Virus genome (UHGV): UHGV-0212970
Direction: 5' to 3' (one strand)
DNA: 53,962 bases
Source of the DNA: a virus
The translations under genes were made by a program, and so were the position numbers. A model generated the notes under the pieces. It was not told the DNA's origin. It searched no databases and saw nothing but the letters and a program-made list of their open reading frames with translations. This document shows positions 1,514-17,405 of this stretch, one piece after another. The stretch's first letter is position 1. Each line of letters opens with the position of its first letter.

Positions 1514-1690
1514 TTACGCCACAGTTACGTTGTCAACTTTGATAAAATATTCAGGGTGATTTTCTATTTCGTGCTGAAAGTGAGCGTGACACAATCGCCA
1601 CTCCCGCGCCTGGTTGTGGAAGTAATAAACATATTCGCCATCAACCTTATACAAAATTCCGGTAGGTTTAGCCATGTAATAACGCGCCAT
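1514..1690 (-). CDS. Small hypothetical protein (58 aa)
   Basis: ATG overlaps the NinB stop (TAATG coupling), SD GGGGG upstream; below ORF-track size cut-off. Confidence 0.3.
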   Translation of the reverse strand: MARYYMAKPTGILYKVDGEYVYYFHNQAREWRLCHAHFQHEIENHPEYFIKVDNVTVA

Positions 1691-2121
1691 TATTTCCCCC
1701 AGCGTTTTATAAATTCCTCGTTTAATTTCGTATCACCCGACCATTGAACATCATGTTCCGCGCCGAACGAGTAAATCAATTCGATTAGTTCGCTGAATTC
1801 TGATTTACTCATTCGACTTGTAGACGTTCCCAATACAACGAAGCCTGATTTATCCAGGTTAGGGACTACGCCATATTTCTTAAGTCCGGCAGTGAATACC
1901 GCTTTCCAGTCTTCCGGCGACAGCTTCTTACCGTACCAATTAACCTGATCGCTAATGTCGGTCAACAGCGCCCAAAGCAACGCATTTTGGCTTAGCGAGC
2001 GGGTTTTCTCCTGAATGGTGATTATCAGCGGGCTTTTGCTATCAGGCTGGATCTCTCTTATCTGCCTGATAGCATTTTCTTTCACTGCGTCGTTGACTAT
2101 CTCAAATCTAATTTGCCTCAT
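1690..2121 (-). CDS. ninB: NinB/Orf-family recombination mediator
   Basis: 143 aa; RSLSQNALLWALLTDIS...WKAVF resembles the NinB family signature. Confidence 0.7.
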   Translation of the reverse strand: MRQIRFEIVNDAVKENAIRQIREIQPDSKSPLIITIQEKTRSLSQNALLWALLTDISDQVNWYGKKLSPEDWKAVFTAGLKKYGVVPNLDKSGFVVLGTSTSRMSKSEFSELIELIYSFGAEHDVQWSGDTKLNEEFIKRWGK

Positions 2122-2344
2122 GATACACCGTTACTATTTCGCCATATAGCACGCGCATACATAATCGCCTGCAAAGAAATTAGCCGCGAGCTTGTCATGT
2201 ATTTTCCTTTAATCTTTTCATATCAACCGTGACAGGCTTATCAGGATCATCGCCGCGCATGTATTCCGCGATCGTGCTTAAATCCTCCACGGTCAATTCT
2301 AAATCCTTGTCCATAATTCCCCCTTACACAATCCGCATTGTGTT

Positions 2345-2530
2345 TCACAATTCCCCACGCAGCGCCCGCAATGCATCGTGCATTGGCACAAAAACCCGGT
2401 TAAATTTTACGTGTTTATATTTCCGCATCAGTGGCGGTGTATACACCTTTGCGTCGTATACTTCCCACGGATAATAAACGCGCGTATCGTCGACAAACGT
2501 TTCAACTGAATAAAAGATTACCCGTCTCAT
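2345..2530 (-). CDS. Hypothetical protein
   Basis: 61-aa ORF in leftward operon, tightly packed with neighbours. Confidence 0.4.
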   Translation of the reverse strand: MRRVIFYSVETFVDDTRVYYPWEVYDAKVYTPPLMRKYKHVKFNRVFVPMHDALRALRGEL

Positions 2531-3084
2531 AATTCTAACCCCGTTTCACCGTTAAGTTTTTCGATCTCAAATACTGGTTTATCCGGTAACAGGCCGTTAT
2601 TTTTCCGGTATTCATTCAGGCGGCTGTCAAAATCAAACGCGAGATCATTAGCGTGACCAAAGCGCCCAGGTTTAAACAGTGAGTAAAAGTTAAGGCCGTG
2701 TTTATTGGTGTCTATGCAAAGCGTTTCATCAAGTACCATTAAACGCAGCGTGCGCGACAGGTAATTCCACGGGATACCAGTTTCCGCGCTAATGTCACGC
2801 ATACACTTCTTAACGCTGTAGTCACTAAATAACGCCGCCACACGATCACGACGTTGTGCATACAAATATTTAATTCGATACCCCAATAATCTGCGGCGCG
2901 GTCCGAAATATGTATATACACGCTCGACAATACCAGTATCAATCAAGTGTTTAATTGTCTCAGGCAAACATCCGGCTTCGTCATATTCCGCTGATAATCC
3001 GGTTTTCTGGCGTAGCTGGTGCATTGTTGCGATGCCGTCCAGTTCAAGGATATTGATAACTTTTGTTTCAAGTTCAATGCTCAT
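2527..3084 (-). CDS. Hypothetical protein
   Basis: ORF track 2527..3120; probable start at internal Met (MSIELETK); no motif recognised. Confidence 0.5.
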   Translation of the reverse strand: MSIELETKVINILELDGIATMHQLRQKTGLSAEYDEAGCLPETIKHLIDTGIVERVYTYFGPRRRLLGYRIKYLYAQRRDRVAALFSDYSVKKCMRDISAETGIPWNYLSRTLRLMVLDETLCIDTNKHGLNFYSLFKPGRFGHANDLAFDFDSRLNEYRKNNGLLPDKPVFEIEKLNGETGLEL

Positions 3085-3163
3085 TGTTTTTCGCCTCGTT
3101 TTAAGCGCGAAAACAGCCACCAGAAAGAGATCAACTTTCCGGTAAGCCGTTTGCTCAAGTTAA

Positions 3164-4585
3164 TTAAAAGGATGCGTTATTCTGGTTATTTCGTGGGGAG
3201 AATCGGCTTGCTGCCGGACGTTGTTGCATTGACTGGATGCAGGCGGACGCCGCGCGAGCCTGGTCGCATGGAATGATGTTGCCGTTATCGTCAAACCGCT
3301 GGTAAACAGTCCCCGTTTTCCCGTGACGGTTTTTTGAAACAATGATCTCCATGTATTCGCGGGCAACTGATTGTTCGTTGTAGTAGCCGTCGCGGTAGAC
3401 CATGATGATCCGGTCTGCGTCTTGTTCAAGATTACCGGAATCACGCAGATCGGAATTGTTCGGGCGCTTGTTCGGTCGTTCTTCAACGCGGCGGGATAAT
3501 TGCGCCAGCGCCGCCACTGGCACGCGCAACTCTTTCGCCATCATTTTCAATGACCACGACAATTGCCCTACGGCGAGATCATGACGTTCGGCCTTAGCCA
3601 GCTTCATTAACCCGATGTAGTCAATCATTACCATCCCCAGGTTAGGATGGTCCTGTTTCATCCGTTCGACGGTGGCGCGTATTTCCTCGACCGTTAACTG
3701 TGATGCGTCAACAATCCACACATCGAGATCGGCAAGGGCGCTCATTCCCTGGGCGACGTGCGCCCATCCTTCATCATCAAGTTTTACCGGATTACGTAGG
3801 CAATCCGTTGATAAGTTCCCAGCGCCAGCGATCGCGCGTTCAGTCATCTGATCGAGTGACATTTCAAGCGTGAACAGTAAAACGCCTACCCGCTGACCTT
3901 CTCCGCCAGGGTATGGACGTTCAGCCGCCGCGCGGGCAATTGCCAGCGCCAATGCCGATTTACCAGACCCAGGGCGTCCGGCGATAAGTACCAGATCAGT
4001 AGCGTTAATGCCGCCTAACATTTCGTCGAGTGGGTCAATCCCTGTTTTGATGTTGTCAGAGTTCACGCCACACTCCATGCGTTTACTTAGCACTTCCGTG
4101 TATTCCTGGACCGCATCGCGCAACAGCACCGGGATAATCTTGTCTTTCGTTACTTTTAATTTTGAATACCGGGAATCAAAATATTTCATCGTCTCCCTGA
4201 CAGCTTCAAGTGTCCCGGTTTCCAGGTTGTAGCGTATATCGTCCATCAGTTCCAACATTTGCCGCCGCTGATATTCCTCCTGTAATAGAGCGGCGTACCC
4301 CTTAAGGTTGGCAGCAGATGGACACGATCGCGCCGTTTGCATTAGCGGGACAAAATTTTCGTTACCGATTTCATCACCGACCATCAGAGCGTCAATAAGG
4401 TTTCTGTTTCTTGCTTGCGCCCGGATGATCTCAAACGCTCGTTTATATAGTGGAATGGTGAAGACTTCAGGATCGAGCGTAGCAAGAACATCTTGCGCGT
4501 TAGGAGTAAGCCCGCCCAACAGGAGGCCACCTATCACAGCCGCTTCCCGTTCCTGGCGTAATGAGTTTATTTGCTCGGTCACCAT
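3164..4585 (-). CDS. DnaB-family replicative DNA helicase
   Basis: 473 aa; Walker A GRPGSGKSALALAIA, DnaB-like N-terminal domain and RecA-like core; SD GGAGG upstream. Confidence 0.85.
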   Translation of the reverse strand: MVTEQINSLRQEREAAVIGGLLLGGLTPNAQDVLATLDPEVFTIPLYKRAFEIIRAQARNRNLIDALMVGDEIGNENFVPLMQTARSCPSAANLKGYAALLQEEYQRRQMLELMDDIRYNLETGTLEAVRETMKYFDSRYSKLKVTKDKIIPVLLRDAVQEYTEVLSKRMECGVNSDNIKTGIDPLDEMLGGINATDLVLIAGRPGSGKSALALAIARAAAERPYPGGEGQRVGVLLFTLEMSLDQMTERAIAGAGNLSTDCLRNPVKLDDEGWAHVAQGMSALADLDVWIVDASQLTVEEIRATVERMKQDHPNLGMVMIDYIGLMKLAKAERHDLAVGQLSWSLKMMAKELRVPVAALAQLSRRVEERPNKRPNNSDLRDSGNLEQDADRIIMVYRDGYYNEQSVAREYMEIIVSKNRHGKTGTVYQRFDDNGNIIPCDQARAASACIQSMQQRPAASRFSPRNNQNNASF

Positions 4586-4622
4586 TATGGTATTGCCTCC
4601 GGTTTACAAAATGGAATATTCA

Positions 4623-5126
4623 GGGTAAAGAAATACCGTGATTGCTATGAAAGTTATACATTCTTTCAGCTTCTTTTCTTGCTTTTACGGCATCATCAAA
4701 TGAGTCACCGTAATAAACGTATATTGTTTTCTTTTTCCCATCAGATCACCTTATACCTATTTGCGCACGCCATTTATTGGTTTTCTTGTTCCACGTAACG
4801 CCAACGCATCCGCTAGTATTACTTGATGGCATTGTTTTGTTTCTGTTATTCTCCTTCCTTGTCACCATCCTTAAGTTTTCGATTCTATCGTCACCAGGTA
4901 CATGATTTATGTGATCTATTTCCATTCCATCAGGAATAGGGCCGTTAAACATTTCCCAGATAATGCGGTGACGCCATGTGCAACAAATACCATTAACGCG
5001 TACAGTCCAATATCCGCGATAATGTTTACATCCAGCCACGCTACCTGCTTTTATTTTGTTATTTGCACGGTTACAAGACCAATATAGAACGCCGTCGCTA
5101 TATGTAAATAAATCATCCCACATCAT
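4623..5126 (-). CDS. HNH endonuclease with AP2-like C-terminal domain, reading frame interrupted by a stop codon near 4746-4748
   Basis: ORF track 4746..5228 (likely start at MMWDD, 5126) has HNH motif EIDHINH...NLRMVTRKEN; 41 further codons after the TGA encode the rest of an AP2-like domain (KKKTIYVYYGDSFDDAVKARKEAERMYNFHSNHG) matching the intact paralog at 32592..33083. Confidence 0.6.
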
Positions 5127-6243
5127 GACACCCCACCATTTCAGGCCTATATACAAAGCGACCAATTTCGCCATAATCAGGACTGTAAATGATAACCGCA
5201 GCGCAACGTTGCGATCTCCATCCTCCATTAGTTGAATAAGCGTCTTTGCCCGCTAACGTGCCGTGGTGTTCAACTATGCCTATAGATGATTCTGTTACTG
5301 ATTTATGGTGCAAATGTCCGACATGGACGTAAACATATTTCGACTTTCCGAAATCCTCCCGCCAGTCAGCTACGCAAGCAGCCAACAAATTTTCCGGCTT
5401 TTTGATAGTGTGCCCGTGGTGGTAAGCAAGGAATGTTTTGCCGTACTGTGTGTGGTGGACGATAGCAGGGGACACATCAACCGTCACGCGCGGTTCATCT
5501 TCGTAAAAAGCCGCCAGCGCCGCGCGTAGCCAAATCATGCCTGACTGATCGTGATTGCCTGATAACACCTGGATTTCAACATCCTTATGATTTAGTAACA
5601 TCTTCCCGACCGCACGCCGGACCGACCGGATCGCCACGTAAACCAGTTTTGCGTAGCGTGAATCGCAATCCAGGACGTGATTGCTTGATGGCGTCACTGG
5701 TAACAGGCCGTCAGTATGAAGCACATCACCGCCGAGAAGTAAAACAGCCTTTTCAGACATTGGCGCAGCGCCTACCGAGTAGTCGAAGAAATCATTTAGC
5801 ACACGTTCAGCGATCCCGGTGTCGTAGCTTTCGCCGCATTCAGCTTTATGAGCAAGCGCCCCGATATGTAGATCGAATACCGGATAAAGGGCCAGGCTTT
5901 TTTGGAAATCAATTTCCGGCACTGGCACGGCCTCCGCGCGTGGCATATCTTCCGTGAAAGCATCGCAAGCCGCTTGCATTAGCCTTTCCATTTCATCGCG
6001 ATCACGGGCTGTTTTAATCCAGCGCATAATCACATTGCCATCCTTATCGACGAGCAAAGACTCACCATTGACGCCAAAACCCGGTGCGCGGCGCGTGGAT
6101 ATTAAACCGCGTTTCGCCAACCGTGCGCCCAGGCGTTCGACGTTGCGTTTTGCCATGCCATATTTTTCTGCGATCTGTTTATACGTCAGACCGTTATTAT
6201 GTTCAGCGATTAACTGTTCATCGCTGATCTTTCTTTGTGACAT
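5113..6243 (-). CDS. Calcineurin-like metallophosphoesterase with N-terminal HTH
   Basis: 376 aa; motifs DLHIG, GGDVLH, GNHD, HHGH, GHLH; N-terminal HTH-like segment (GLTYKQIAEKYGMAKRNVERL). Confidence 0.65.
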   Translation of the reverse strand: MSQRKISDEQLIAEHNNGLTYKQIAEKYGMAKRNVERLGARLAKRGLISTRRAPGFGVNGESLLVDKDGNVIMRWIKTARDRDEMERLMQAACDAFTEDMPRAEAVPVPEIDFQKSLALYPVFDLHIGALAHKAECGESYDTGIAERVLNDFFDYSVGAAPMSEKAVLLLGGDVLHTDGLLPVTPSSNHVLDCDSRYAKLVYVAIRSVRRAVGKMLLNHKDVEIQVLSGNHDQSGMIWLRAALAAFYEDEPRVTVDVSPAIVHHTQYGKTFLAYHHGHTIKKPENLLAACVADWREDFGKSKYVYVHVGHLHHKSVTESSIGIVEHHGTLAGKDAYSTNGGWRSQRCAAVIIYSPDYGEIGRFVYRPEMVGCHDVG

Positions 6244-6395
6244 AACGTTAATTCCTCCGGTTTACAGAATGTATATTTATTTTCCGTAAAACGCGCTACA
6301 ACGCAAAATTCCACCGCGTAACCCATTTGTAAGGGTGCAGTGTCTTTTTTGCGCCAGAGGCGCTATCAGGTGGCTAATTTTCGATTTACAGACTG

Positions 6396-6506
6396 GTAGG
6401 TAGGTTATGGATTAACGAGAAGGTACAAACCGCCGAACAAAGCGACGTTAACAGCGATTACCGCAGCGATGGCAAAAGCCAGGGCGAAAACGTGTTTACC
6501 GTCCAT
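6396..6506 (-). CDS. Small hydrophobic peptide (about 36 aa)
   Basis: MDGKHVFALAFAIAAVIAVNVALFGGLYLLVNP; single predicted TM helix; below ORF-track cut-off. Confidence 0.3.
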
Positions 6507-6639
6507 TTTAAAATCCTCTCTGTAACGCTCTATAACGAGCTAAACCGCTAAAGATATGCAATCGTAGCACCATGCGTGTTTTAGCTCGCTGGCGAGGTTG
6601 TTTTGTGGGTAATTTTGGATTTTTGCGGATCGTGGTTGG

Positions 6640-7692
6640 TCAAAGAACGCCAGCGCGTGTATCACGTAGCGTTTTTGGTTTAAGCAGGAAATCAAGTGTC
6701 GCAGTAAAGCCATTGCCGAAGTAAAAATCTGAAGCCGTGTTTTTGAACGTTTCGAAGTAGGCGACAAAGCCGTTAATGCTTTTGTCTTTCAGGTAGTCAG
6801 TGAACGCATAGATCTTGCGTTCAAGATCCCGATCCAGTTCGGCAGGTGGTAACAGGCCGTCAAACGTGCTGTTAAATGCTTCCACCACGTCGGCAGCGTT
6901 TACAGTAGCTGATAGCTTGCGCCATTGTTCAGCATCAGCCAAATACCCATCAAACTTAGTTACCCGGCAAATGTTGATAGGCTTAGGTGTTCCACCACGG
7001 CTACGCCATTGCGTTAAAGCCCACTCAATCACTAATGTGATCTCATCCTCCGTATACGCTTTACGTGTTTTTGTTTCTGTCAGTAGTTCTACGAATGGCT
7101 TAGCATCACGACATTTGCATCCTGCCTTGTCGTTGTAGAAGGCAAGGCAACGCAATGCCGCTTCGTTTACGCCATCCTGATTGACCATTTTTTGTTCATT
7201 TTCGACAATACACGAAGTGTATATATCTTTTTCTCTTTCTTTTTCTACTTCTAATTCTAATTCATGACCCTTTCCTGACCCGGTCATGACCCTATCATGA
7301 CCTTTTGGTGTTGAATTGATTAACTTTTCTAATTTTAATTGCTCCTTCGCTGTGTTTATGGCGGCCCTGTAAGCGCTTTTAGAAGTCATTGATTGGTCCA
7401 GCCTTTTCAATAACTTTAAACAAGTTATGTGGCCTTGAGAACATTCAAACAAACCAATTTCGATGAAGTATTTCATTATTTCTTCTGTACGTTTTTCAGT
7501 AGATCCGACGTTTCGCGCAATTATTCTTGCGTCATGTCGTAGGTTAAAAGTTAGATTGTGCTGATCTACGTCATAAGTTATTAGTTCTAGGCAATACCAA
7601 TAAAGCCCGTACCCTTCCAGGCCATAATCTAATAAAACGTTTTGAAGTTTTTCATCGCGGTTCGCATCGCTATCATGCTTAAACCACTTCAT
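6640..7692 (-). CDS. Phage replisome organizer / replication initiation protein (DUF4373-like N-terminal domain)
   Basis: 350 aa; N-terminus MKWFKHDSDANRDEKLQNVLLDYGLEGYGLYWYCLELI matches the DUF4373 pattern as I recall it; sits upstream of the helicase. Confidence 0.6.
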   Translation of the reverse strand: MKWFKHDSDANRDEKLQNVLLDYGLEGYGLYWYCLELITYDVDQHNLTFNLRHDARIIARNVGSTEKRTEEIMKYFIEIGLFECSQGHITCLKLLKRLDQSMTSKSAYRAAINTAKEQLKLEKLINSTPKGHDRVMTGSGKGHELELEVEKEREKDIYTSCIVENEQKMVNQDGVNEAALRCLAFYNDKAGCKCRDAKPFVELLTETKTRKAYTEDEITLVIEWALTQWRSRGGTPKPINICRVTKFDGYLADAEQWRKLSATVNAADVVEAFNSTFDGLLPPAELDRDLERKIYAFTDYLKDKSINGFVAYFETFKNTASDFYFGNGFTATLDFLLKPKTLRDTRAGVL

Positions 7693-7695
7693 AGA

Positions 7696-7950
7696 TCATT
7701 CCTCCGGCAATGCAATGTCATAAATGTCGCCGTATTCGTCAGCGCGTTTAATGAATCCTTTGCGGATCAATGAATTTAATGCGTCAACAGCAGTATGCAG
7801 TGGCAGTTCGCACACTTTTGCGATCTCTTCGCGTGAAGCATGTGCGCGGCCTTTGTTGTCTGCCTTTTCTGCAAACGCAATTAAGACAAGTTTTTGGATC
7901 GGGCTGTTAAGTTTTACGTTCCATGCTTCATTCATCATGCGCATACTCAT
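7696..7950 (-). CDS. HTH DNA-binding protein, first gene of the leftward operon (Cro-like or replication-associated)
   Basis: 84 aa; winged-helix-like segment SREEIAKVCELPLHTAVDALNSLIRKGFIK; divergent from the repressor gene. Confidence 0.45.
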   Translation of the reverse strand: MSMRMMNEAWNVKLNSPIQKLVLIAFAEKADNKGRAHASREEIAKVCELPLHTAVDALNSLIRKGFIKRADEYGDIYDIALPEE

Positions 7951-8059
7951 CTTGTTTTTCTCCTATGGTTAGAGTGAACGCGCGGGCGGGCATCCCATTA
8001 GCATTAGATAGCAGTGACTGACCGCTCAACAGATCCCGCCGTTGCGTGATATTTGTTTT

Positions 8060-8092
8060 TCGCTTCGCAGCGACACCGGATTTTTAAAGAGC
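8060..8092 (-). promoter_or_regulatory. nutR-like antitermination site (boxA GCTCTTTAAAAA plus GNRA-loop hairpin) on the leftward transcript
   Basis: Minus-strand GCTCTTTAAAAA is 1 mismatch from the rrn/lambda boxA consensus; about 11 nt further along the transcript is hairpin uCGCU-GCGA-AGCGa. Confidence 0.4.
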
Positions 8093-8168
8093 TTAAGGTA
8101 AGTGCCTTTTGTGCCTTCCGTTATCTTTTTCTTTGCGTCTTTGCAAGTATGGCCTTACCTTGTCTGCA

Positions 8169-8196
8169 AGTTTACAAAATGGAATTTTAAGATCAA
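8169..8196 (-). promoter_or_regulatory. Candidate leftward early promoter (PR-like) overlapping motif copy TTTACAAAATGG
   Basis: Minus strand TTGATC-N16-TAAACT; CCATTTTG element lies in the spacer. Confidence 0.35.
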
Positions 8197-8220
8197 GGCT
8201 TAAAATACACGTTTTGTGAC

Positions 8221-8248
8221 TTGCATCAAACCTTTTGAGGTTATAGGG
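8221..8248 (+). promoter_or_regulatory. Candidate repressor-gene promoter (PRM-like)
   Basis: TTGCAT-N16-TATAGG ending about 7 nt before the cI-like ATG; would give a near-leaderless mRNA. Confidence 0.3.
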
Positions 8249-8255
8249 TAGCGAC

Positions 8256-8903
8256 ATGAAAACAAAATGGTATGACTTAGCAAAGCAGCTCATGCGGGCG
8301 CAGGGCATGAGTCAGGATTCACTCGCAGATCTCATGGGGATAACTAAAGGCGGCCTGTCACACTGGCTTAACGGTCGCCGCGAGCCAAATCTTGAAGATA
8401 TTGCGCGGATTATGCGGGCGCTTGGGCGTCGTCAGTTCACTGTTACACATGATGGTATGGTCATTGATGATTCTGTTTCTAATACACTTCAGGCCGCACC
8501 GCCGCGTGATTTAGGTAGTTACCCGGTTATTGACTGGAAGGACACAGTAAACAATATGGATGACACAAGGCGATCAGCATTACCACACGTTACGACTAGC
8601 GTTATTTGTTCAGATGATAGTTACTGGCTGGTTGCCAAAGGTGAATCAATGAACGCGCCGCAGGGGTTAAGCATCCCGGCGGGGACGATGATACTTGTTG
8701 ACCCGCACGCGCCAGCTATTGACGGCAAACTGGTTATAGCCCAGCTTGAGGAAGGGCAGATACCGACGTTTAAACAGTTGATTATTGATGGAGGTCAAAG
8801 GCTTTTACGTTCGCTGAATCCGCTGTATCCGCCAATCCCTATGAATCCAGAATCAAAAATTATAGGCGTGGTGGTTGATGCGAAGATCGTAAACCTGCCA
8901 TAA
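8256..8903 (+). CDS. CI-like prophage repressor (XRE-family HTH plus S24 LexA-like peptidase domain)
   Basis: 215 aa; N-terminal HTH (SQDSLADLMGITKGGLSHWLNGRR), C-terminal S24 motifs (VAKGESM ... TFKQL). Confidence 0.85.
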   Translation: MKTKWYDLAKQLMRAQGMSQDSLADLMGITKGGLSHWLNGRREPNLEDIARIMRALGRRQFTVTHDGMVIDDSVSNTLQAAPPRDLGSYPVIDWKDTVNNMDDTRRSALPHVTTSVICSDDSYWLVAKGESMNAPQGLSIPAGTMILVDPHAPAIDGKLVIAQLEEGQIPTFKQLIIDGGQRLLRSLNPLYPPIPMNPESKIIGVVVDAKIVNLP

Positions 8904-8908
8904 ACATT

Positions 8909-8934
8909 AGCCGCCGAATGGCGGCTTTTCTTTG
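8909..8934 (+). terminator. Rho-independent terminator after the repressor gene
   Basis: Hairpin AGCCGCC-GAAT-GGCGGCT followed by TTTTCTTT. Confidence 0.7.
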
Positions 8935-9012
8935 CCTGGAAAACACCAAAACGTAAACAGAAAACGTTATTTATTATTTAAATATCAATGGTATATAAAT
9001 ATTTTAAAAAAG

Positions 9013-9024
9013 TATACAAAATGG
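9013..9024 (-). promoter_or_regulatory. Copy of the recurrent 12-nt element (TATACAAAATGG) abutting the -35 of the rightward early promoter
   Basis: Exact motif copy; its reverse complement reads CCATTTTGTATACT (TG plus -10-like hexamer) facing the repressor 3' end. Confidence 0.35.
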
Positions 9025-9025
9025 A

Positions 9026-9054
9026 TTGACTCGGTGTTTTACGGGGCGTATATT
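9026..9054 (+). promoter_or_regulatory. Sigma70-type early rightward promoter (PL-like)
   Basis: TTGACT-N17-TATATT with AT-rich upstream region; followed by a roughly 340-nt untranslated leader. Confidence 0.6.
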
Positions 9055-9308
9055 GCGAATCAAAGGAAGGGCGCAGGTAACAAAAGCAACTTCCTGGCAC
9101 TTTAAAAATCAGGCTTAACACCTTGTCAACCGTGGAGTAACTCCCCGATGGGGGACCGAAAGCGGCACTGATAACAAGGCGCATGGGGTGTTTAAAGCGT
9201 TACATCCCCCACGAAACCGCACGCAAGGCGACGAGTCAGCTTGCTTGGAGTGAGCAAGGTCACGCCGGGAACGGCGATGATTGCGGGATTAGTTGAAAGA
9301 TGTTAAGC

Positions 9309-9347
9309 CGCTCATTAACAATCTGGTCAGCCGCTGGAAGTGCGGCA
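9309..9347 (+). promoter_or_regulatory. nutL-like antitermination site (boxA CGCTCATTAACAA plus boxB-like hairpin)
   Basis: GCTCATTAACAA is 1 mismatch from boxA GCTCTTTAACAA; 12 nt downstream hairpin GCCGC-UGGAAGU-GCGGC with purine-rich loop; just upstream of the N-like gene. Confidence 0.45.
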
Positions 9348-9402
9348 ATTAACGAAGATGATTTTTTATTAAGTATCATCAAGGATATACGGAGATCAGA
9401 TT

Positions 9403-9693
9403 ATGAGCGTTACAATTATATATGGTAAATGTGATAGCAAAATGAATGCCAGGGAACGCAGAAGGATAAAAAGAGAAAACGAAAGAAAATCATCACCTGC
9501 AATCAATAAAACAGACAATGTGGATAAAGCTATTCGATTTGCAAACGAGGAAAGATGCAAACCAAATAGCATTAAAGAACGTCGCAAAGGATCAGTAAAA
9601 TGGTATACGGAAAATGAAAGCGGCAGCTACTACCACGCAACGCAACCACGCCATTTAGGGGAAAAACCCCTGGATAAAGTCCGCTATCATTAA
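9403..9693 (+). CDS. N-like transcription antiterminator (arginine-rich motif)
   Basis: 96 aa; MSVTIIYGKCDSKMNARERRRIKRENERK resembles the P22 gene 24/lambda N arginine-rich N-terminus as I recall it; SD GGAG upstream. Confidence 0.65.
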   Translation: MSVTIIYGKCDSKMNARERRRIKRENERKSSPAINKTDNVDKAIRFANEERCKPNSIKERRKGSVKWYTENESGSYYHATQPRHLGEKPLDKVRYH

Positions 9694-9722
9694 TACAAAA
9701 TGTAAACATCCGGAGATGACAT

Positions 9723-9842
9723 TATGGTTATTCAGGCGCTTCAATTCAAACTGGCAGTAGCGGAAATGCTTCACGATGCCGAAATGTGGAGCGCCGCGAA
9801 TAAAGCCTTATACATAGTGTTAACAGCGAAGGAGGCTAGTTA
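9723..9842 (+). CDS. Small hypothetical protein (39 aa)
   Basis: ATG-initiated ORF filling the gap between N-like gene and HNH gene. Confidence 0.3.
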
Positions 9843-10373
9843 ATGTCTTATTCAAAACATGGAATGACGCACACAAAACTTTATGAAGTTTTTAAAGGAA
9901 TGAAAACGAGATGCAGGAAAACCGATAAGAATCCACGAAATAAACACTATAAGGATAAGAATATAACTATATGTGATGAATGGTTGAATGATTCATCAAA
10001 GTTTATTGAGTGGGCTTTCAATAACGGTTATCAGGAAGGGTTAGAGATAGACAGAATTGATAACGACAAAGGTTATTCACCGGATAATTGCCGATGGGTT
10101 ACACATGCTGAAAACATGCGCAATACATGTAGAACTACGATGTTAACAGTGAGCGGGGAAACTAACACAATACATTATTTTTCCGAAAAATACGGTATAT
10201 GTGAACGCACCATATATACAAGATTACGTCGCGGCTGGAGTCATGAGGCCGCTGTACTTCTTCCTTTAAGAAAGGGGAAACGATGTGAAGAAAGATTTAT
10301 ACAAAAAATTGTGGCTAATTCAGCAACAATTAAAAGCGCCAAAATCTCAGCGCAATTCATACGGTGGATATAA
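9843..10373 (+). CDS. HNH homing-type endonuclease
   Basis: 176 aa; N-terminal TKLYEVFKGMKTRC module, HNH motif IDRIDNDKGYSPDNCRWVTHAENMRN, C-terminal RLRRGWS helix. Confidence 0.75.
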   Translation: MSYSKHGMTHTKLYEVFKGMKTRCRKTDKNPRNKHYKDKNITICDEWLNDSSKFIEWAFNNGYQEGLEIDRIDNDKGYSPDNCRWVTHAENMRNTCRTTMLTVSGETNTIHYFSEKYGICERTIYTRLRRGWSHEAAVLLPLRKGKRCEERFIQKIVANSATIKSAKISAQFIRWI

Positions 10374-10926
10374 TTACAGATCGGCGGAGGATATTTTAGA
10401 GGCTGTTAAGCCTTTATTGGAAGGCATTACGTTAACGCTTAATGATGAAGTGGTGTTAATTGGTGATCGTTATTACATTAAAGCAACAGCGATATTGAGC
10501 GATGGTGAAGATGAAATAACGGCTACTGCTTTCGCCCGCGAGGAAAAAGAACAAAAAGGCATGTCGTCTGGTCAGTTAACTGGCGCGACTTCTTCTTATG
10601 CTCGCAAATATTGTTTAAACGGCTTGTTCTGTATCGACGACGCAAAAGATCTGGATAGCGACGCTTACGCGAAGCAGACAGGCCAGCAGCCGCGACAACA
10701 GAAAAACCCACCAAAACAACAACCGCAGCAGAAGAAAGCGCCGCCAAATCCTGATGAAGTATTAGCACGTTTCTGTGATGCAGCAGCGAAAGCGCAGGAC
10801 GCTAACAAGCTGCGTGAAATATTTGGCAAATGCTGGAAATTACTACCGGAAGGATCGGAGCATCGAATCAAGGCAAAAGATGTTTATGACATCCGGGTAG
10901 CAGAGCTTAACGGGGAGATGGGTTAA
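10285..10926 (+). CDS. erf: Erf-family single-strand annealing protein
   Basis: 213 aa; KLWLIQQQLKAPKSQRNSYGGYNYRSAEDILEAVKP matches the ERF N-terminal signature; Gln/Pro-rich linker. Confidence 0.75.
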   Translation: MKKDLYKKLWLIQQQLKAPKSQRNSYGGYNYRSAEDILEAVKPLLEGITLTLNDEVVLIGDRYYIKATAILSDGEDEITATAFAREEKEQKGMSSGQLTGATSSYARKYCLNGLFCIDDAKDLDSDAYAKQTGQQPRQQKNPPKQQPQQKKAPPNPDEVLARFCDAAAKAQDANKLREIFGKCWKLLPEGSEHRIKAKDVYDIRVAELNGEMG

Positions 10927-11330
10927 TGAGTTTAAATTCAATCACGCTGGGCGGGAATATCGGTAATGATATGGAGGTTCGCTACACACAAAACGGGAAA
11001 GCGATTGGTAGTTTTCCGTTAGCTGTAACGAATGGCTACGGCGATAATAAGCGGACAATGTGGGTCACTTGCCTGGTATTTGGTGAGCGTGCGGAAAAAT
11101 TAGCGCCACATATCCGCAAGGGTGGAAAAATAGTGGTAAGCGGTCGCCTGGATGTTCGGCAATATGACCGGAACGACGGCACGAAGGGAACTGCGGTAGA
11201 AGTGGCGGTCAATGAGTTTGAGTTCATGGCTGTTAACCAGCAAGGCCAGCAGCAGAAAGCGCCGCCGCAGCAGCAGAATAATAACGGGAATAATGTTCCT
11301 CCTGACTTCGATGACGACATCCCGTTTTAA
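10926..11330 (+). CDS. ssb: Single-stranded DNA-binding protein
   Basis: 134 aa; OB-fold region, Gln/Asn-rich linker and acidic C-terminal tip DDDIPF. Confidence 0.85.
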   Translation: MSLNSITLGGNIGNDMEVRYTQNGKAIGSFPLAVTNGYGDNKRTMWVTCLVFGERAEKLAPHIRKGGKIVVSGRLDVRQYDRNDGTKGTAVEVAVNEFEFMAVNQQGQQQKAPPQQQNNNGNNVPPDFDDDIPF

Positions 11331-11345
11331 ATCAATAGGTTAGCT

Positions 11346-11624
11346 GTGGGTGATTATTTAAAACCGCCACCGCCACCGCGAACAAAAGAGCAAGTTCTAA
11401 GAGAAGCCCGTGATCAAATCGATCATGGGCTTTTTTTATGCGGAACGGCAGCGGAACGGATGGCAAAAAGATTTAGTGACCTGTACGCAAAACAAATATG
11501 GCTCGACAACTGGCAGGCAAGTTTTTATCCGCTGCAAAGAAAACCGGATATGCACTGGCCTGAATATGTCGATCCACGTATGCGCAAATATCGCGGGCGT
11601 ATGGGCCGGGTTATTAACGATTAA
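11346..11624 (+). CDS. Hypothetical protein
   Basis: 92-aa ORF (GTG start) in early operon; no motif recognised. Confidence 0.4.
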   Translation: MGDYLKPPPPPRTKEQVLREARDQIDHGLFLCGTAAERMAKRFSDLYAKQIWLDNWQASFYPLQRKPDMHWPEYVDPRMRKYRGRMGRVIND

Positions 11625-11638
11625 TGAGGTATTAAATC

Positions 11639-11863
11639 ATGATCGAAGATAAAGAAGTTGACGGAGAAATTCCTGACGGCGCTGATGAGCTTATCACTTT
11701 CGGCGGCAGGCTGTACGAGTTCGAAACGTCTGCGGGGTGGCACGATAAATGGCCTTTCCCTACTCGCCAGGAATTAAGTGACCGCAAAGCATTCGGCGAA
11801 GATGCAGAACGGCTGGCTAATAACAAATGGCTTGATAAGTTCATTGCGGAGGGTGGCAAATGA
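11639..11863 (+). CDS. Hypothetical protein
   Basis: 74-aa ORF with SD; acidic. Confidence 0.45.
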   Translation: MIEDKEVDGEIPDGADELITFGGRLYEFETSAGWHDKWPFPTRQELSDRKAFGEDAERLANNKWLDKFIAEGGK

Positions 11864-11943
11864 ATCTTGCAAAAATTGCCGCATTGCTTGCGGCTTTATC
11901 TATCGCGTGCTGTATCTCAGCGTGTCGCTTTATATCACGGTAG
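11860..11943 (+). CDS. Small hydrophobic peptide (27 aa)
   Basis: MNLAKIAALLAALSIACCISACRFISR; ATGA overlap with upstream stop. Confidence 0.3.
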   Translation: MNLAKIAALLAALSIACCISACRFISR

Positions 11944-11980
11944 CGATCATTAAACTCATTACTAACATGTGAGGCCAATC

Positions 11981-12100
11981 ATGAAAGTCGGTAAGGACAT
12001 TGTGACGGTCGCGTTTTGCATTATTTTCTTCCTTTTTGTTGTTGTGTTTTGTGGCGCATTTGCTGCGCTTGTTAGCTTTATTTTCAGAGGGTTGATGTAA
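11981..12100 (+). CDS. Small membrane peptide (39 aa)
   Basis: MKVGKDIVTVAFCIIFFLFVVVFCGAFAALVSFIFRGLM; SD GAGG upstream; possible kil-like early membrane protein. Confidence 0.3.
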   Translation: MKVGKDIVTVAFCIIFFLFVVVFCGAFAALVSFIFRGLM

Positions 12101-12369
12101 TGAAAACGTGGGATGCAAAGGCTGGTGATCTTGTCGTATTGCCTGAATATCGTGATGACCCTGGCTTGGTTGTGCTGAATAAGGGGAGCTACGATCAGCG
12201 CCCGTTACTGGTTAAATATCTTGACGGAACAATAATAGAGCCGCGTTTCTTTGACAATATTGAACTGAAGGCCCGAAATGTTCGCGTTAAGCCGTTCCGG
12301 GCTTATGCTGAAAACCACTGGCGGAAATTGTTCGCCGGGCTGAATGGGATGTTCGGCGTATGGCTATAA
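12100..12369 (+). CDS. Hypothetical protein
   Basis: 89-aa ORF, translationally coupled. Confidence 0.45.
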   Translation: MKTWDAKAGDLVVLPEYRDDPGLVVLNKGSYDQRPLLVKYLDGTIIEPRFFDNIELKARNVRVKPFRAYAENHWRKLFAGLNGMFGVWL

Positions 12370-12551
12370 AAGAAGTAAAGGTTAAACACCTGAAAGGTGG
12401 GGAGCGCTTAAAGGCGTGGTGGGGCCGTGAATTTACAGCTACTGCTTTCAGATTCAGGCAAGGCGGAGAGGTCATTATATACGACGAAAACATGGATGAA
12501 GTTGGTAAATGGCATCTTGAGCAATACGTCGAGGTGTTAAATGAAAATTAA
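12360..12551 (+). CDS. Hypothetical protein
   Basis: 63-aa ORF. Confidence 0.4.
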   Translation: MAIKEVKVKHLKGGERLKAWWGREFTATAFRFRQGGEVIIYDENMDEVGKWHLEQYVEVLNEN

Positions 12552-12873
12552 ATTCCATAAAGCATATGATAGCGAAACAAACAAGCTATCACTATTTATC
12601 GAATTCGAACGCCGGATCGTGGTTGTGCCCTGGGCGCGGCGCTTCAATGACGCTGGCGGACGCAGACAATTCGCGGTTGATATGCTGTTACGCGGCTGCG
12701 GCCTTATGCGTCCGCTATCTGATTTAAAACGAATGATGCCGGGATCGTTCGGTCAGATTGATGAAATAGAAATAAGCCCGGAAGAACTGAAACGGGAGCG
12801 TGATTTATTCCTTTCAAGCGAAGGAAACCCGTTTAATTCAGAAACTGAAATGAAATGGCATCACCCACTATAA
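12541..12873 (+). CDS. Hypothetical protein
   Basis: 110-aa ORF. Confidence 0.45.
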   Translation: MKIKFHKAYDSETNKLSLFIEFERRIVVVPWARRFNDAGGRRQFAVDMLLRGCGLMRPLSDLKRMMPGSFGQIDEIEISPEELKRERDLFLSSEGNPFNSETEMKWHHPL

Positions 12874-12886
12874 AAGGATAAATATC

Positions 12887-13507
12887 ATGAAAGACATCAA
12901 AACGGCTTATTCACTCGGCAGCGAAGGCATGTTAATCACTCGCTACACTGAAGACGCAAGTTTTCATGAAGTTGAAATTAAAGATTATCACGAAGTATTG
13001 AAAGATATGGAAGCTGGCAAGTATGACGCTGATTTGAATCTGGCGTTACAGATTGTTGATATTGTGATGGATGCGTCGATCCGCGATTATATGTCTTTAA
13101 ATGCTGAAGAAAAAACTGCCGTAGTTCGTTATGTCTTCTGCCTTACTTTCGTAAAACAAATGGAAGAGGAATATGGACGCGTACCAGTGCCGGAAGAGGT
13201 TGATCCGCTCGCGTTCGGAAGTGCTGTTATTTTCCCGTTGAACAAGGATCAGCTTGGTAGTGTTTCACTGCATTCTATGCGCGGCCTGATGAAAAACATC
13301 TTTGAAGTTAAGATGTTGCAGAAATGCATTGAGGAAGGCCACAAAGAAGAAGAAGTAAAAGCGTTTATGCCGCTGTTTTACTGTGAAATGGTTGGCAATG
13401 ATATGCGCGCAAATGATTTCGGTGTACAGGCGGCTATCGCTGTGCTTAATGATGCACGGAAAAACGCACAGCCGATGCCTGAACAGGAAAAACGTGTACT
13501 GCATTAA
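12887..13507 (+). CDS. Hypothetical protein (206 aa)
   Basis: Long ORF with SD; no motif recognised. Confidence 0.5.
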   Translation: MKDIKTAYSLGSEGMLITRYTEDASFHEVEIKDYHEVLKDMEAGKYDADLNLALQIVDIVMDASIRDYMSLNAEEKTAVVRYVFCLTFVKQMEEEYGRVPVPEEVDPLAFGSAVIFPLNKDQLGSVSLHSMRGLMKNIFEVKMLQKCIEEGHKEEEVKAFMPLFYCEMVGNDMRANDFGVQAAIAVLNDARKNAQPMPEQEKRVLH

Positions 13508-14780: not shown

Positions 14781-15320
14781 ATGAAAAATGATTACGGCGG
14801 CAGCCACACGCCGAAAGAAATAAAAGACCTATGGCAGACGCCGAAACCTGTTTTTAGAGGTATGGATCGTGAATTCGAATTCGTCGCGGATGTGGCTGCA
14901 AACAAGGAAAACGCATTAGTTCCGCGATATATAACAGAAGAAATGGACACGCTACATTATCCGTGGGGAGCGGTGGCGATGCCTGGTGAGTATGTCTGGA
15001 TGAATCCACCATATTCAAATCCTGGACCATTCGTCGATAAGGCGGCGCTTGAACACCATAGAAACCATATCGGATGCGTAATGTTATTGCCAGCTGACAT
15101 TTCTGTTAGCTGGTTTATGAACGGCGTGGAGACGGCAAACGAATGCCGATTAATAACGCGCGGGAGGCTGGCATTTATTAATGCCGCTACTGGTAAGCCA
15201 GCAAGCGGAAACAATAAAGGGAGCTTGTTCTTGATCTGGCATCCACGGTGCAGACATGAATGTATTTTCACGCAGATAACACGTAAAGAGCTATACGCGA
15301 GAGGCGAAAATAATGACTAA
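14781..15320 (+). CDS. Phage Dam-like DNA N6-adenine methyltransferase
   Basis: 179 aa; N-terminal WQTPKPVF and catalytic NPPYS (motif IV) typical of the phage N6A-MTase family. Confidence 0.7.
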   Translation: MKNDYGGSHTPKEIKDLWQTPKPVFRGMDREFEFVADVAANKENALVPRYITEEMDTLHYPWGAVAMPGEYVWMNPPYSNPGPFVDKAALEHHRNHIGCVMLLPADISVSWFMNGVETANECRLITRGRLAFINAATGKPASGNNKGSLFLIWHPRCRHECIFTQITRKELYARGENND

Positions 15321-15825
15321 GGCAGCAGATTTATTAAGACTTGCAGCAGAAACCATAGAGCAAAGAGGTAAGCAAAACGGATACGACAAAAAAGAGGAAA
15401 AATCAGCGCCAAAAATAGCAACTATTTACAACGCTAAGAAGGGAGCAAATTTAACACCGCTTGATGTATGGGATCTGCTAATTTGTCTCAAGGAGGCGCG
15501 TTTAGAAGCCATTTTGAGCAATAACAGCGATCCGACAGACACACTAATTGATTTAATTAGCTATAACGCGCTAAAAGCTGAGCAAATATTAACGGAACGT
15601 GAGGAAGAACAAAGAAAGAAACAGGCTGTTTTTGATCTCCCTATCAGCGGAGGGATAAAACTTTACTCTGATATTTCAGTGCCTGACCAGTCGATTATTC
15701 CTGGGAAAATAATTCCTACTGTGAAGTTTAACGGTGAGGTCGCTAATTGGCTTGATTTGAAGTTTGACAGATCGGAATGTATTCATGATAAGAGGTACGA
15801 TCCAAATGGAAAGGGTGACAATTGA
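15313..15825 (+). CDS. Hypothetical protein resembling dATP/dGTP pyrophosphohydrolase-type (MazG-like) phage domain
   Basis: 170 aa; pattern RGKQNGYD...IATIYNAKKGANLTPLDVWDLLICLKEARL recalled as similar to the phage dNTP pyrophosphohydrolase N-terminal domain; not verified. Confidence 0.35.
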   Translation: MTKAADLLRLAAETIEQRGKQNGYDKKEEKSAPKIATIYNAKKGANLTPLDVWDLLICLKEARLEAILSNNSDPTDTLIDLISYNALKAEQILTEREEEQRKKQAVFDLPISGGIKLYSDISVPDQSIIPGKIIPTVKFNGEVANWLDLKFDRSECIHDKRYDPNGKGDN

Positions 15826-16309
15826 CAGGTTATTAGCCTGCGTTTATGTCGCCGTTTTCGTGATTATCAATCTTATTGTTAACCATTGCGGCCCGTGGGT
15901 GATTCCGATCACCACGGTAGCCGCAGTGTGTGTCAATATGATGATCCGTGACCTTCTGTTATATGACGGCGGCCTGAAATGGTCGGCTACAACATGCGCC
16001 GCCGCTGGCGCAATCACGGTGCTGATAAATTACGACGCCGGAATGGTGGCGATCGCGTCATTCGTCGCGGTTGTTTCCGGTGCGCTTATTTCTGGCGGCG
16101 TTTACCGGGTTCTACCTGGTGATTTCGATTCCAAACGCTGGCCTGCAAATATAGCGTCCGCCATTGGCGATGCGTTAATTTTTCCCACGCTATCGTTTAT
16201 GGCATTTATGCCGGAAATATCAGCTATTCAATTCATCTCAAAAATGGCAGCGGTAACGGTGATTACTATCATCATGCGCCGCTATTTCACGTTTGAGGGT
16301 AGAAAATGA
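15806..16309 (+). CDS. Multi-pass inner-membrane protein (possible YhhQ/VUT-like precursor transporter)
   Basis: ORF track 15764..16309; 4-5 hydrophobic helices; family assignment tentative. Confidence 0.4.
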   Translation: MERVTIDRLLACVYVAVFVIINLIVNHCGPWVIPITTVAAVCVNMMIRDLLLYDGGLKWSATTCAAAGAITVLINYDAGMVAIASFVAVVSGALISGGVYRVLPGDFDSKRWPANIASAIGDALIFPTLSFMAFMPEISAIQFISKMAAVTVITIIMRRYFTFEGRK

Positions 16310-17069
16310 GCGGGCTTAGAAATTGGGTTATCTGGTCGCTGTACGACGGAAGCGGGTACGCCGTTAAAGATTGGGCGGAAGCTGGTATAAATGCTATTGC
16401 TTCAACTATGACGGCGCTAATCACGGGGATTATGACGGGGTAAAAATAATTCATCCAAATATTGAATATGTTAACGTATGGATTGACAGCCATTTCCTGG
16501 TAATGTTCTCCCCTGAATTGTCTGTTTATCCAGATCCTGACATTATCTTGGGCTTTCCTCCGTGTGATGATCTTGCCGTATCAGGCGCTCGTTGGTTCGC
16601 TGATAAACGGAAAAAAGATCCTGGCTTCCAGGTAAAGGCGGCGTATAACGCAAAAATTGTAGAAAAACTGGCGAATATGTATAACGTGCCGTGGATGGTG
16701 GAAAATCCAGTTGGCGCACTGTCAACGTTATGGCGTAAACCGGATTTTATCTTCAATCCTTGCGTTTACGGTGGCTACCTGCCTGAAGATGACAAACATC
16801 CTGCTTTCCCGGAATACATTGCCGACCGCGATGCCTACACGAAGAAAACTTGTATTTGGTGCGGGAATGGATTTAAGCAGCCGCTATTCCGTCCTGTGCC
16901 GATGCCAGATGAATGGGAAGACAGTAAGCAGCACGCGAAGTTAGGCGGAAAATCAAAGCGAACAAAGATGATCCGCTCACTAACGCCGCGTGGCTTCGCC
17001 CGTGCTGTATTCCTAGCTAACGACCGGGCCATCAATCGTACTACGCTCAACCGCGTTTTGCCGGACTGA
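16306..17069 (+). pseudogene. DNA (cytosine-5)-methyltransferase split between two reading frames (16306..16443 and 16371..17069)
   Basis: Upstream short frame encodes motif-I-like WVIWSLYDGSGYAVKDWAEAG then stops; ORF-track frame 16371..17069 carries motif IV GFPPC and motif VI ENPVG; junction within 16371..16443. Confidence 0.5.
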
Positions 17070-17091
17070 AGTTTACAAAATGGCGTCATTG

Positions 17092-17107
17092 TGTGATGAA
17101 TGTCACA
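17092..17107. promoter_or_regulatory. Perfect CRP-consensus palindrome TGTGA-N6-TCACA
   Basis: TGTGATGAATGTCACA lies between an inverted pair of the 12-nt element, centred about 60 nt upstream of the TG-TATACT element at 17139-17152. Confidence 0.35.
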
Positions 17108-17138
17108 TAATGGCGCTTTACACTTTGTTAGCACGTAT

Positions 17139-17152
17139 CCATTTTGTATACT
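17139..17152 (+). promoter_or_regulatory. Promoter-like element CCATTTTGTATACT (extended -10 type)
   Basis: Member of the recurrent element family; precedes the 17229 small gene and NinG. Confidence 0.35.
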
Positions 17153-17228
17153 TCAAGCAAACAAAATGCTCTTTAAAAATCCGGCAGCGCTGAAATGCGT
17201 AGAAATCACCTGAAAAGGAGAGAGCATT

Positions 17229-17405
17229 ATGCCTTTTGATAATTACCAATGGCATGACGACTATGAACGAGAAAGCGTTATGCGTGCAATGTGCAATGTA
17301 TGCAGCACGAAGAAAGGAGGCTGTAACGAGTGCAACGAATGCTTAGAACATTGGCTAAGGGCCGGACACGCCGAAAGGCTGAACGAAACAGAGAATCAAA
17401 AATAA
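17229..17405 (+). CDS. Small Cys-rich protein (about 58 aa, putative zinc ribbon)
   Basis: MPFDNYQWHDDYERESVMRAMCNVCSTKKGGCNECNECLEHW...; SD GGAGAG upstream; 3' end coordinate uncertain. Confidence 0.3.
   Translation: MPFDNYQWHDDYERESVMRAMCNVCSTKKGGCNECNECLEHWLRAGHAERLNETENQK

Follow-up and report, generated by a model that had tools for sequence, protein, structure and literature searches.

The window, by which we mean the whole 53,962-nt stretch of DNA that was analysed, comes from a temperate phage of E. coli that belongs to the mEp021/mEpimmI group (MH706966, PP180001-5, and MagusPhagus PP925836; PMC11893012), a set of Nus-dependent temperate coliphages whose genomes, at ~54 kb, are similar in size to the window. 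Positions 14781-17069, located between the early genes and ninG-rusA-Q, hold four overlapping genes on the plus strand that encode, in order, a Dam-type adenine methyltransferase, a DUF6378 protein, a small YhhQ/VUT-like membrane protein, and a minimal C5-cytosine methyltransferase (MTase) (Table 1). The open reading frames match the four consecutive genes that an earlier note on this DNA had described, and the overlap of gene ends within the block suggests translational coupling. The mEp021 group carries the same order, annotated as Dam, hypothetical protein, ‘putative membrane protein’, and ‘putative DNA cytosine methyltransferase’, with 86-94% DNA identity to the block in the window, and the downstream order of terminator/nutR2, ninF, ninG, rusA, and Q is likewise that of the window. 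The block, also carried by about 35 complete E. coli genomes, consists of accessory genes in an already known phage group, one that has already been described from the human gut. All genes of the block other than the C5-methyltransferase are intact in the window.

Table 1 Features of the four-gene accessory block and its downstream flank, in window positions
Feature	Position	Strand	Size	Basis and remarks
Orphan phage Dam-type N6-adenine DNA methyltransferase	14781..15320	+	179 aa	NPPYS (NPPY motif); PF05869, TIGR01712, phrog_111
DUF6378 protein	15313..15825	+	170 aa	PF19905, phrog_9871; 8-nt overlap with Dam
Small multi-pass membrane protein, divergent VUT/YhhQ (COG1738) superfamily	15806..16309	+	167 aa	phrog_4899; profile and hhalign
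C5-methyltransferase pseudogene, 5′ fragment	16306..16443	+	45 codons	LYDGSG; ATG overlaps the upstream stop (ATGA)
C5-methyltransferase pseudogene, 3′ fragment	16371..17069	+		FPPC, ENP, C-terminal IRSLTPRG block; phrog_757, E 4.6e-77
Lesion: one T of ancestral TT missing, codon 27	16386	+		Alignment to intact homologues
Strong hairpin just 3′ of the methylase stop	17085..17114	+		Same position as the predicted mEp021 terminator t4
boxA-like TGCTCTTTAAAAA and boxB-like hairpin (GCGC-TGAAAT-GCGT)	17167..17200	+		Sequence reading and fold

The first gene product is a typical member of the orphan Dams found in lambdoid nin regions, with no notable difference from them. It matches PF05869 (E 4.5e-52; 176.6 bits, cutoff 28.1) and TIGR01712 (142 bits, cutoff 97.05) over its full length and above the curated cutoffs, bears out the earlier identification of a Dam-like N6-adenine methyltransferase from its NPPYS motif, and, like other members of this class, has the NPPY catalytic motif and lacks a partner restriction gene. 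PADLOC labels it ‘orphan methyltransferase’, and a PADLOC defence-system scan returned nothing beyond this label. Across 35 unique copies, dN/dS for Dam is 0.047. The second gene product, likened in the earlier note to phage dNTP-pyrophosphohydrolase domains, matches PF19905 at residues 7-90 (31.7 bits, gathering cutoff 27.1), with no other Pfam match at E<=10 and no match among PDB sequences. A conserved N-terminal domain of ~100 aa is followed by a mosaic C-terminal half, which is variable or frameshifted in many relatives, and in some relatives the short version of ~100 aa occurs alone. Literature retrieved for DUF6378 function mentions the name only.

At the downstream end of the block, the RNA fold of 17065-17230 reaches −55.1 kcal/mol (z −6.0), and both mEp021 and mEp010 have an annotated terminator at this position. 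From its sequence and fold, the boxA-like/boxB-like element that follows is probably nutR2, closing the block; in mEp021, nutR2 lies downstream of the methyltransferase gene (PMC11893012).

The third gene is the most conserved and constrained of the block. Its dN/dS is 0.033, and it is intact in all full-length loci other than a single deletion lineage (L012/L077). The mechanically called open reading frame begins at TTG 15764; relatives use the ATG, and the start is accordingly set as in Table 1. On its own, the protein matches Pfam Vut_1 (PF02592) below the gathering cutoff of 27.2 (12.3-12.5 bits, E 0.2), and this sub-threshold match runs end to end, from model position 6 to 149 of 152. A profile search with the family recovers 258 homologues, and among 45 sampled distant homologues, all with E<=1.6e-9 to the family profile, 41 match Vut_1 (best E 2.5e-15). 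Similarly, hhalign aligns the family with E. coli YhhQ over 142 columns (probability 92%, E 6.4e-7). The AF2 model is all-helical with a pLDDT of 92.4, in common with the all-helical membrane proteins of the YhhQ/VUT family, and the top matches of a BFVD fold search include ‘Putative vitamin uptake transporter’, with weak E-values. Sequence comparison thus supports assignment of the protein as a divergent member of the VUT/YhhQ superfamily, in line with the resemblance suggested in the earlier note. E. coli YhhQ (COG1738, PF02592) is a queuosine-precursor (preQ0/preQ1) transporter. The two proteins are homologous over almost the full length and have the D-L-t-x-R, A-S-F-x-A, and D-x-x-V-Y/F blocks in common, whereas the phage protein is shorter (167 aa versus 221 aa) and, unlike YhhQ, is encoded in a phage early operon without DpdA or Que genes. 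The protein that mEp021-like phages all list as ‘putative membrane protein’ or as hypothetical can be relabelled as a divergent VUT/YhhQ-superfamily protein.

The fourth gene belongs to phrog_757 and would, in intact form, encode a minimal enzyme of ~254 aa; its intact homologues have 254 aa in MagusPhagus, 252 aa in mEp021, and 260 aa in mEp010. Family invariants are FDGSG, FPPC, and ENP, arranged in the order I (F/YDGSG), IV (PPC, whose Cys is catalytic), and VI (ENx) that is common to the C5-MTases (PF00145; M.HaeIII, DNMT3A/3B). Motif I reads LYDGSG in the 5′ fragment of the window, with G23, S24, and G25 conserved without exception in 48 homologues. Motif IV (FPPCDD) and motif VI (ENPVG) have P93, P94, and C95 and E141, N142, and P143, respectively, invariant in the family alignment, with Pro in motif VI where C5-MTases have Val. 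In the profile search, motif IV aligns to PPCQ of M.HaeIII and SPCN of DNMT3B, and the phrog_757 version resembles that of DNMT3 (PCTDLA versus PCNDLS). The family departs from known C5-MTases in being much shorter (227-262 aa), with the target-recognition domain almost absent, in having ENP rather than ENV, and in lacking a Gln after the PC dipeptide.

Single-sequence searches with the MTase against Pfam, NCBIfam, and PDB sequences returned nothing, intact homologues have no Pfam match to PF00145 even at E<=10, and among the 120 homologues listed a precomputed PF00145 match appears in two; the link came from profile and fold comparison only. Profile matches to PDB sequences are weak (E 0.5-0.9), yet all of them are C5-MTases (M.HaeIII, DNMT3B). 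The AF2 model of one homologue (P0001; pLDDT 87.8) retrieves only DNMT3A/3B catalytic domains among its top 50 Foldseek PDB matches (best E 2.3e-6, probability 1.0, TM 0.45-0.50). The invariant motifs, the DNMT3-like predicted fold, and the weak profile matches together point to membership of the C5-methyltransferase class. This agrees with the identity proposed in the earlier note, including its PC of motif IV; its ENV of motif VI does not hold, as that motif reads ENP. A literature search for a characterised phrog_757 member, its activity, or its target site turned up nothing but unrelated enzymes, M.BatI among them. The phrog_757 ‘DNA cytosine methyltransferase’ family, with lengths of 230-260 aa and >2,300 cluster representatives, would constitute a minimal C5-MTase group that escapes PF00145, and the specificity of these putative MTases is worth determining.

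In the window, the MTase coding sequence is not intact. As the earlier note had observed, the frame with motif I ends at about 16443 and motifs IV and VI lie in the overlapping frame 16371..17069. Alignment to intact homologues, proposed there as the means of locating the shift, places it at a single missing T, with GCTGG-TATAAA in the window where MagusPhagus, mEp021, and mEp010 have GCTGGTTATAAA or GCTGGATATAAA. The change of GGTTAT to GGTAT puts everything downstream in the −1 frame, so that motif I and motifs IV and VI stand in different frames. The 5′ fragment consists of 27 native codons, including motif I, followed by 18 out-of-frame codons and a stop; the 3′ fragment is homologous from 16386 onward, with 97% identity to MagusPhagus residues 28-254 and no secondary lesions. 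Unlike the window, all seven full-length phage records of the mEp021 group have a single continuous, intact MTase frame, as do 11/11 metagenome contigs and most IMG/VR loci. These 11 contigs were retrieved in a metagenome scan with a pattern accepting both alleles, and none has the deletion allele. Database entries for the 45-aa product come from three sources, and the same deletion is present in an independently produced ENA contig (ERZ27289114 k119_115368) that is 100% identical over 6.5 kb. A sister prophage in SRR8533728, 99.6% identical, retains the T and instead carries a nonsense mutation, TGG to TAG at window position 16373, 13 nt upstream of the missing-T site.

We put at roughly 0.8 the probability that the split arose by a real and recent mutation inactivating an orphan methylase that the phage can do without, and that this is ordinary gene decay. 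Loss of the T in codon 27 ends the native frame directly after the SAM-binding motif I and shifts motifs IV and VI, the catalytic ones, into another frame, so that an active enzyme is not expected. The lesion would then be real in the phage population, with the activity abolished, and loss of the MTase would be tolerated, perhaps even advantageous in hosts that restrict methylated cytosine, for example through McrBC.

It is unlikely that the frameshift is instead an artefact of sequencing or assembly and that the MTase is intact in the real phage. A single-base lesion with the downstream frame perfectly kept, 97% identical to intact homologues, is what such an error would leave; the absence of secondary decay in the 3′ fragment fits a very recent mutation and fits an error equally. 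The frameshifts of two other relatives fall in A5 and A6 runs and could be errors themselves, and the three deletion records may share one sample, in which case a consensus error peculiar to that sample, or a variant present there as a minority, could account for all of them. Against this, the lost T belonged to a TT pair, outside any homopolymer run, and the ENA contig, with its k119_ name style, has the identical base sequence. Over 6.5 kb, just two 1-nt indels separate the window from its sister prophage, which argues that the assembly is not indel-prone, and the unrelated nonsense mutation of the sister in the same gene indicates that genuine inactivation occurs in this lineage.

The membrane gene admits two broader readings. 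It is doubtful that the YhhQ-like protein imports queuosine or another nucleobase precursor without DpdA, either boosting host tRNA queuosine for phage translation or, with the DUF6378 protein, feeding an unrecognised nucleotide or DNA modification, while the methylases are interchangeable passengers. More doubtful still is a single nucleobase-salvage and DNA-modification pathway formed by all four genes, in which the VUT-like protein would import a precursor, the DUF6378 protein would process nucleotides, the methylases would act on DNA, and loss of the C5 enzyme would rewire the pathway. The homology of the membrane protein to the preQ0/preQ1 transporter is compatible with such a pathway, the overlapping order of Dam, DUF6378, membrane, and MTase genes is kept in a locus whose membrane protein is ~52-54% identical (L067), and a more distant VUT-like homologue sits two genes from an N6/N4 methylase. 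However, no TGT/DpdA, QueC/D/E, or FolE homologue appears in the scanned early open reading frames, and the closest phage has none annotated either: TGT/DpdA and Que domains are absent from a Pfam scan of ten frames of at least 150 aa at 106-13507, and the annotation of MagusPhagus (54.4 kb) shows no TGT/DpdA/Que gene in its first 50 kb or in the partly covered remainder. The preQ0/dpdA-type genes that the earlier note had proposed to look for beside the membrane gene in related phages are thus missing from this annotation. Moreover, phage YhhQ homologues do not correlate with any deazaguanine group (Hutinet et al. 2019, PMC6884629). The pairing itself also dissolves outside the phage group, where no VUT-like gene lies within 3.5 kb in any of 15 loci with MTase homologues (45-61% identity), and four loci with a VUT-like homologue (P0189) have no such MTase; in one relative, the STEC308 prophage, the methylase slot is occupied by an HNH endonuclease. 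With the VUT-like gene and the MTase found separately in other phages, a joint base-modification pathway, at which the position of a transporter-like gene between two methyltransferases had seemed to hint, is unsupported.

Least credible of all is a functional split, through programmed −1 ribosomal frameshifting or a phase-variable ON/OFF switch: phase-variable methylases are known from other bacteria, and a −1 shift within the 76 nt over which the frames overlap (16368-16443) could in principle restore the protein, but a scan of this overlap finds no X_XXY_YYZ slippery heptamer, homopolymer and short-repeat scans and TRF find nothing at 16386 (the nearest run of at least five bases is at 16442, and TRF reports only a weak 12-nt repeat at 16407-16440), the deletion hits a conserved codon and leaves repeat length unchanged, every related phage has the MTase in a single frame, and the sister lineage was inactivated by a stop codon instead. 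With neither a slippery heptamer nor a repeat tract, programmed frameshifting and phase variation are both unsupported. Among the options that had been listed for the split, the pseudogene is favoured by the independent lesions and the intact relatives, a sequencing error is improbable, and the slippery site and the phase switch fall away.

Ordinary decay of an accessory methylase, the reading we prefer, has parallels across the relatives. The MTase carries an additional A in an A5 run at codon 46 in one locus (L042), lacks an A from an A6 run at codon 103 in another (L045), has a ~108-codon deletion plus a C-terminal shift in three (L059/60/64), and is also disrupted in the homologues P0109, P0096, and P0004. 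Dam is frameshifted in two loci (L011 and L025), a deletion from Dam to the membrane gene has joined these two genes in L012, and several loci have a frameshift in DUF6378. In the mEp021 group, the C5-MTase is dispensable; like Dam and DUF6378, it has been repeatedly lost, broken, or swapped. The disrupted MTase is itself of little consequence, a textbook accessory phage gene shortly after inactivation, and the two open reading frames of 16306-17069 are best annotated together as one pseudogene. A selective pressure aimed at loss of the C5-MTase itself was considered and set aside as a firm claim, since the number of independent lesions per kb is similar in Dam and DUF6378 and gives no indication of selection directed at the C5 enzyme in particular. 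Intact copies of the MTase, with a dN/dS of 0.056, are under strong purifying selection.

The four consecutive genes that the earlier note placed at window 14781-17069, the last of them a split C5-methyltransferase (MTase) gene, are borne out by the ORFs and by alignment with intact homologues. All lie on the + strand with overlapping ends (8 nt, 20 nt and an ATGA stop/start), and the Dam-like N6A assignment of the first gene stands, as do most of the note's other gene identities. The block is 86–94% identical to, and in the same gene order as, that of mEp021, mEp010, mEp013, mEp044, mEp515, mEp554 and MagusPhagus, the mEp021/mEpimmI coliphage group being described in PMC11893012; the window's proteins also have exact matches in a TPA ‘Caudoviricetes sp.’ record. 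No restriction partner lies near either methylase of the block, and both are therefore orphans. The 166-nt spacer 3′ of the methylase gives z = -6 when folded whole, and its hairpin and boxA/boxB-like element are probably the terminator t4 and nutR2 site described for mEp021, in which nutR2 is placed directly downstream of the methyltransferase gene (PMC11893012). ninF-like, ninG, rusA and Q-type genes follow.

Table. Features of the four-gene block and the spacer 3′ of it (window positions).
Feature	Position	Strand	Basis or content
Gene 1, phage Dam-type N6-adenine methyltransferase	14781-15320	+	PF05869 E 4.5e-52; TIGR01712 142 bits vs cutoff 97; NPPY motif
Gene 2, DUF6378 protein	15313-15825	+	slightly over Pfam threshold, first 90 residues
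Gene 3, helical membrane protein, 167 aa	ATG 15806, end 16309	+	phrog_4899
Gene 4, 5′ ORF	16306-16443	+	encodes MSGLRNWVIWSLYDGSGYAVKDWAEAG, then 18 unrelated residues
Gene 4, 3′ ORF	16371-17069	+	remainder of phrog_757 ‘DNA methyltransferase’; FPPCDD, ENPVG
Strong hairpin, 13-bp stem	17085-17114		directly 3′ of methylase stop; fold
boxA/boxB-like element	17167-17200		boxA-like TGCTCTTTAAAAA; boxB-like hairpin GCGC-TGAAAT-GCGT

Intact homologues of gene 4 are single ORFs of 252–262 aa, and alignment with them reveals that exactly one base is absent at window 16386 (codon 27), a T of an ancestral TT (GCTGG-TATAAA in the window versus GCTGGTTATAAA or GCTGGATATAAA in relatives). The 3′ part of the gene is free of secondary damage and 97% identical to intact proteins, so the lesion is recent. 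The deletion allele is private: a scan pattern accepting both alleles found it in 0 of 11 metagenome contigs, all of them intact. Among the explanations that the earlier note had listed, we favour the pseudogene, and read the split as a genuine loss-of-function mutation, recent and private, that hit a dispensable orphan C5-MTase of a known phage group (probability roughly 0.8). The disruption is an ordinary finding.

A sequencing error that dropped the base is improbable. The absent T lies outside any long run, and a separately assembled ENA contig (ERZ27289114 k119_115368, 54,081 bp), which matches the window's proteins and is 100% identical over 6.5 kb, has the same sequence at the lesion. 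Nor is the assembly indel-prone: a comparison across 6.5 kb with a sister prophage of 99.6% identity (on a 163-kb contig of SRR8533728) shows just 24 substitutions and two 1-nt indels. Recoding and phase variation can in effect be dismissed, since there is neither an X_XXY_YYZ heptamer in the two-frame overlap 16368-16443 nor, by repeat scan, a homopolymer or short repeat at the lesion site.

The sister prophage retains the T and instead carries TGG>TAG at window 16373 in the same gene, so that two near-identical lineages bear different knock-outs. The nonsense change and the 1-nt deletion lie 13 nt apart, both right after motif I, a closeness that may be chance, there being only two events. 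The other window/sister indel is a 1-nt T difference at 17414, in the spacer that immediately precedes ninG (start 17419), and may alter ninG ribosome-binding spacing.

Decay recurs among relatives, surveyed in 59 IMG/VR loci and 11 metagenome contigs, with some contigs common to both sets. In the C5-MTase gene, L042 has one A added to an A5 run (codon 46), L045 has one A removed from an A6 run (codon 103), and L059, L060 and L064 lack ~108 codons and also have a C-terminal shift; three protein-database entries looked at separately (P0004, P0096, P0109) are truncated, internally deleted or frameshifted. Dam is frameshifted in L011 and L025 and fused in-frame to the membrane gene in L012, and at least three distinct frameshifts affect the C-terminal half of DUF6378; the C5-MTase is thus not alone in decaying. 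The membrane gene is intact in all full-length loci but L012 and its metagenome copy L077, and ninG in all of them. For intact copies dN/dS is 0.047 (Dam), 0.033 (membrane protein), 0.056 (MTase) and 0.056 (NinG). The genes are thus functional in the loci that have them, yet each is dispensable.

In L012 (3148-3501 of IMGVR_UViG_3300045988_049781, the same contig as L077) the in-frame deletion removes all of DUF6378 and joins the first ~40 Dam codons to the last ~80 membrane-protein codons, leaving the downstream C5-MTase intact. In the E. coli STEC308 prophage (L084 3207-3734, NZ_CP091020.1) a 175-aa HNH endonuclease occupies the methylase slot behind the Dam, DUF6378 and membrane genes, with the same overlapping stop/start junction, and a second HNH gene lies between ninG and rusA. 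The DUF6378 protein, in the window as in loci L009, L018, L019, L038, L043 and L067, is conserved over its first ~100 residues only; its C-terminal half is mosaic (35–98% identity), missing in ~100-aa versions or frameshifted in several lineages, and its dN/dS is 0.22 versus about 0.05 in neighbouring genes.

The C5-MTase identity of gene 4 holds up. Its family comprises 2,371 cluster representatives, most of them 227–262 aa long; they come from phages and prophages of enterobacteria, and some are labelled ‘DNA cytosine methyltransferase’. Invariant residues make up F/YDGSG, FPPC, ENP and IRSLTPRG blocks. Pfam PF00145 does not detect it. The top 50 PDB matches of an AlphaFold model of one homologue (P0001, pLDDT 87.8) are all DNMT3A/3B catalytic domains (best E 2.3e-6), and a profile search of PDB sequences matched, weakly, only M.HaeIII and DNMT3B, over motifs I–IV. 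The family is a putative minimal C5-MTase-like enzyme with an almost absent target-recognition domain, a small annotation gain.

A second such gain is the YhhQ-like assignment of the membrane protein; the earlier suggestion that it is possibly YhhQ/VUT-like is supported. The protein itself matches Pfam Vut_1 end to end at only E 0.2; 41 of 45 sampled homologues match it (best E 2.5e-15), from 258 found by profile search of 1.84 billion representatives. By hhalign the family is homologous to E. coli YhhQ, a queuosine-precursor transporter (92% probability, E 6.4e-7, 142 columns). An all-helical structure is predicted with confidence by AF2, and among its closest viral structural matches is a ‘Putative vitamin uptake transporter’. 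Across ~50 loci the gene shows 96–99% protein identity and dS 0.26, versus 0.43–0.66 in its flanks, suggestive of either tighter constraint on the segment or a sweep in recent times.

The base-modification pathway hinted at by a transporter-like gene between two MTases is unsupported. TGT/DpdA and Que genes were found neither in the scanned early-region ORFs nor in the closest phage's annotation. The two genes are apart elsewhere: none of 15 other viral loci with MTase homologues at 45–61% identity has a VUT-like neighbour, and the loci whose VUT-like homologue is 44% identical lack such an MTase. Phage YhhQ homologues show no correlation with any deazaguanine group (Hutinet et al. 2019, PMC6884629). 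The four-gene order is retained in one more divergent relative (L067), which shows linkage in the lineage, not functional dependence. In an unrelated phage-like contig (L068 5001-7258, ERZ28573663 scaffold_1021), a VUT-like homologue of 44% identity precedes a PF01555 N6/N4 DNA methylase gene by two genes, which loosely repeats the association of transporter-like gene and methylase.

The ORF at 106-645, which begins close to the edge of the window, codes for the catalytic part alone of a phage integrase (positions 20-166 of the 172 in the Pfam model). Probably the genome is cut or permuted inside this gene, or else the protein is truncated.
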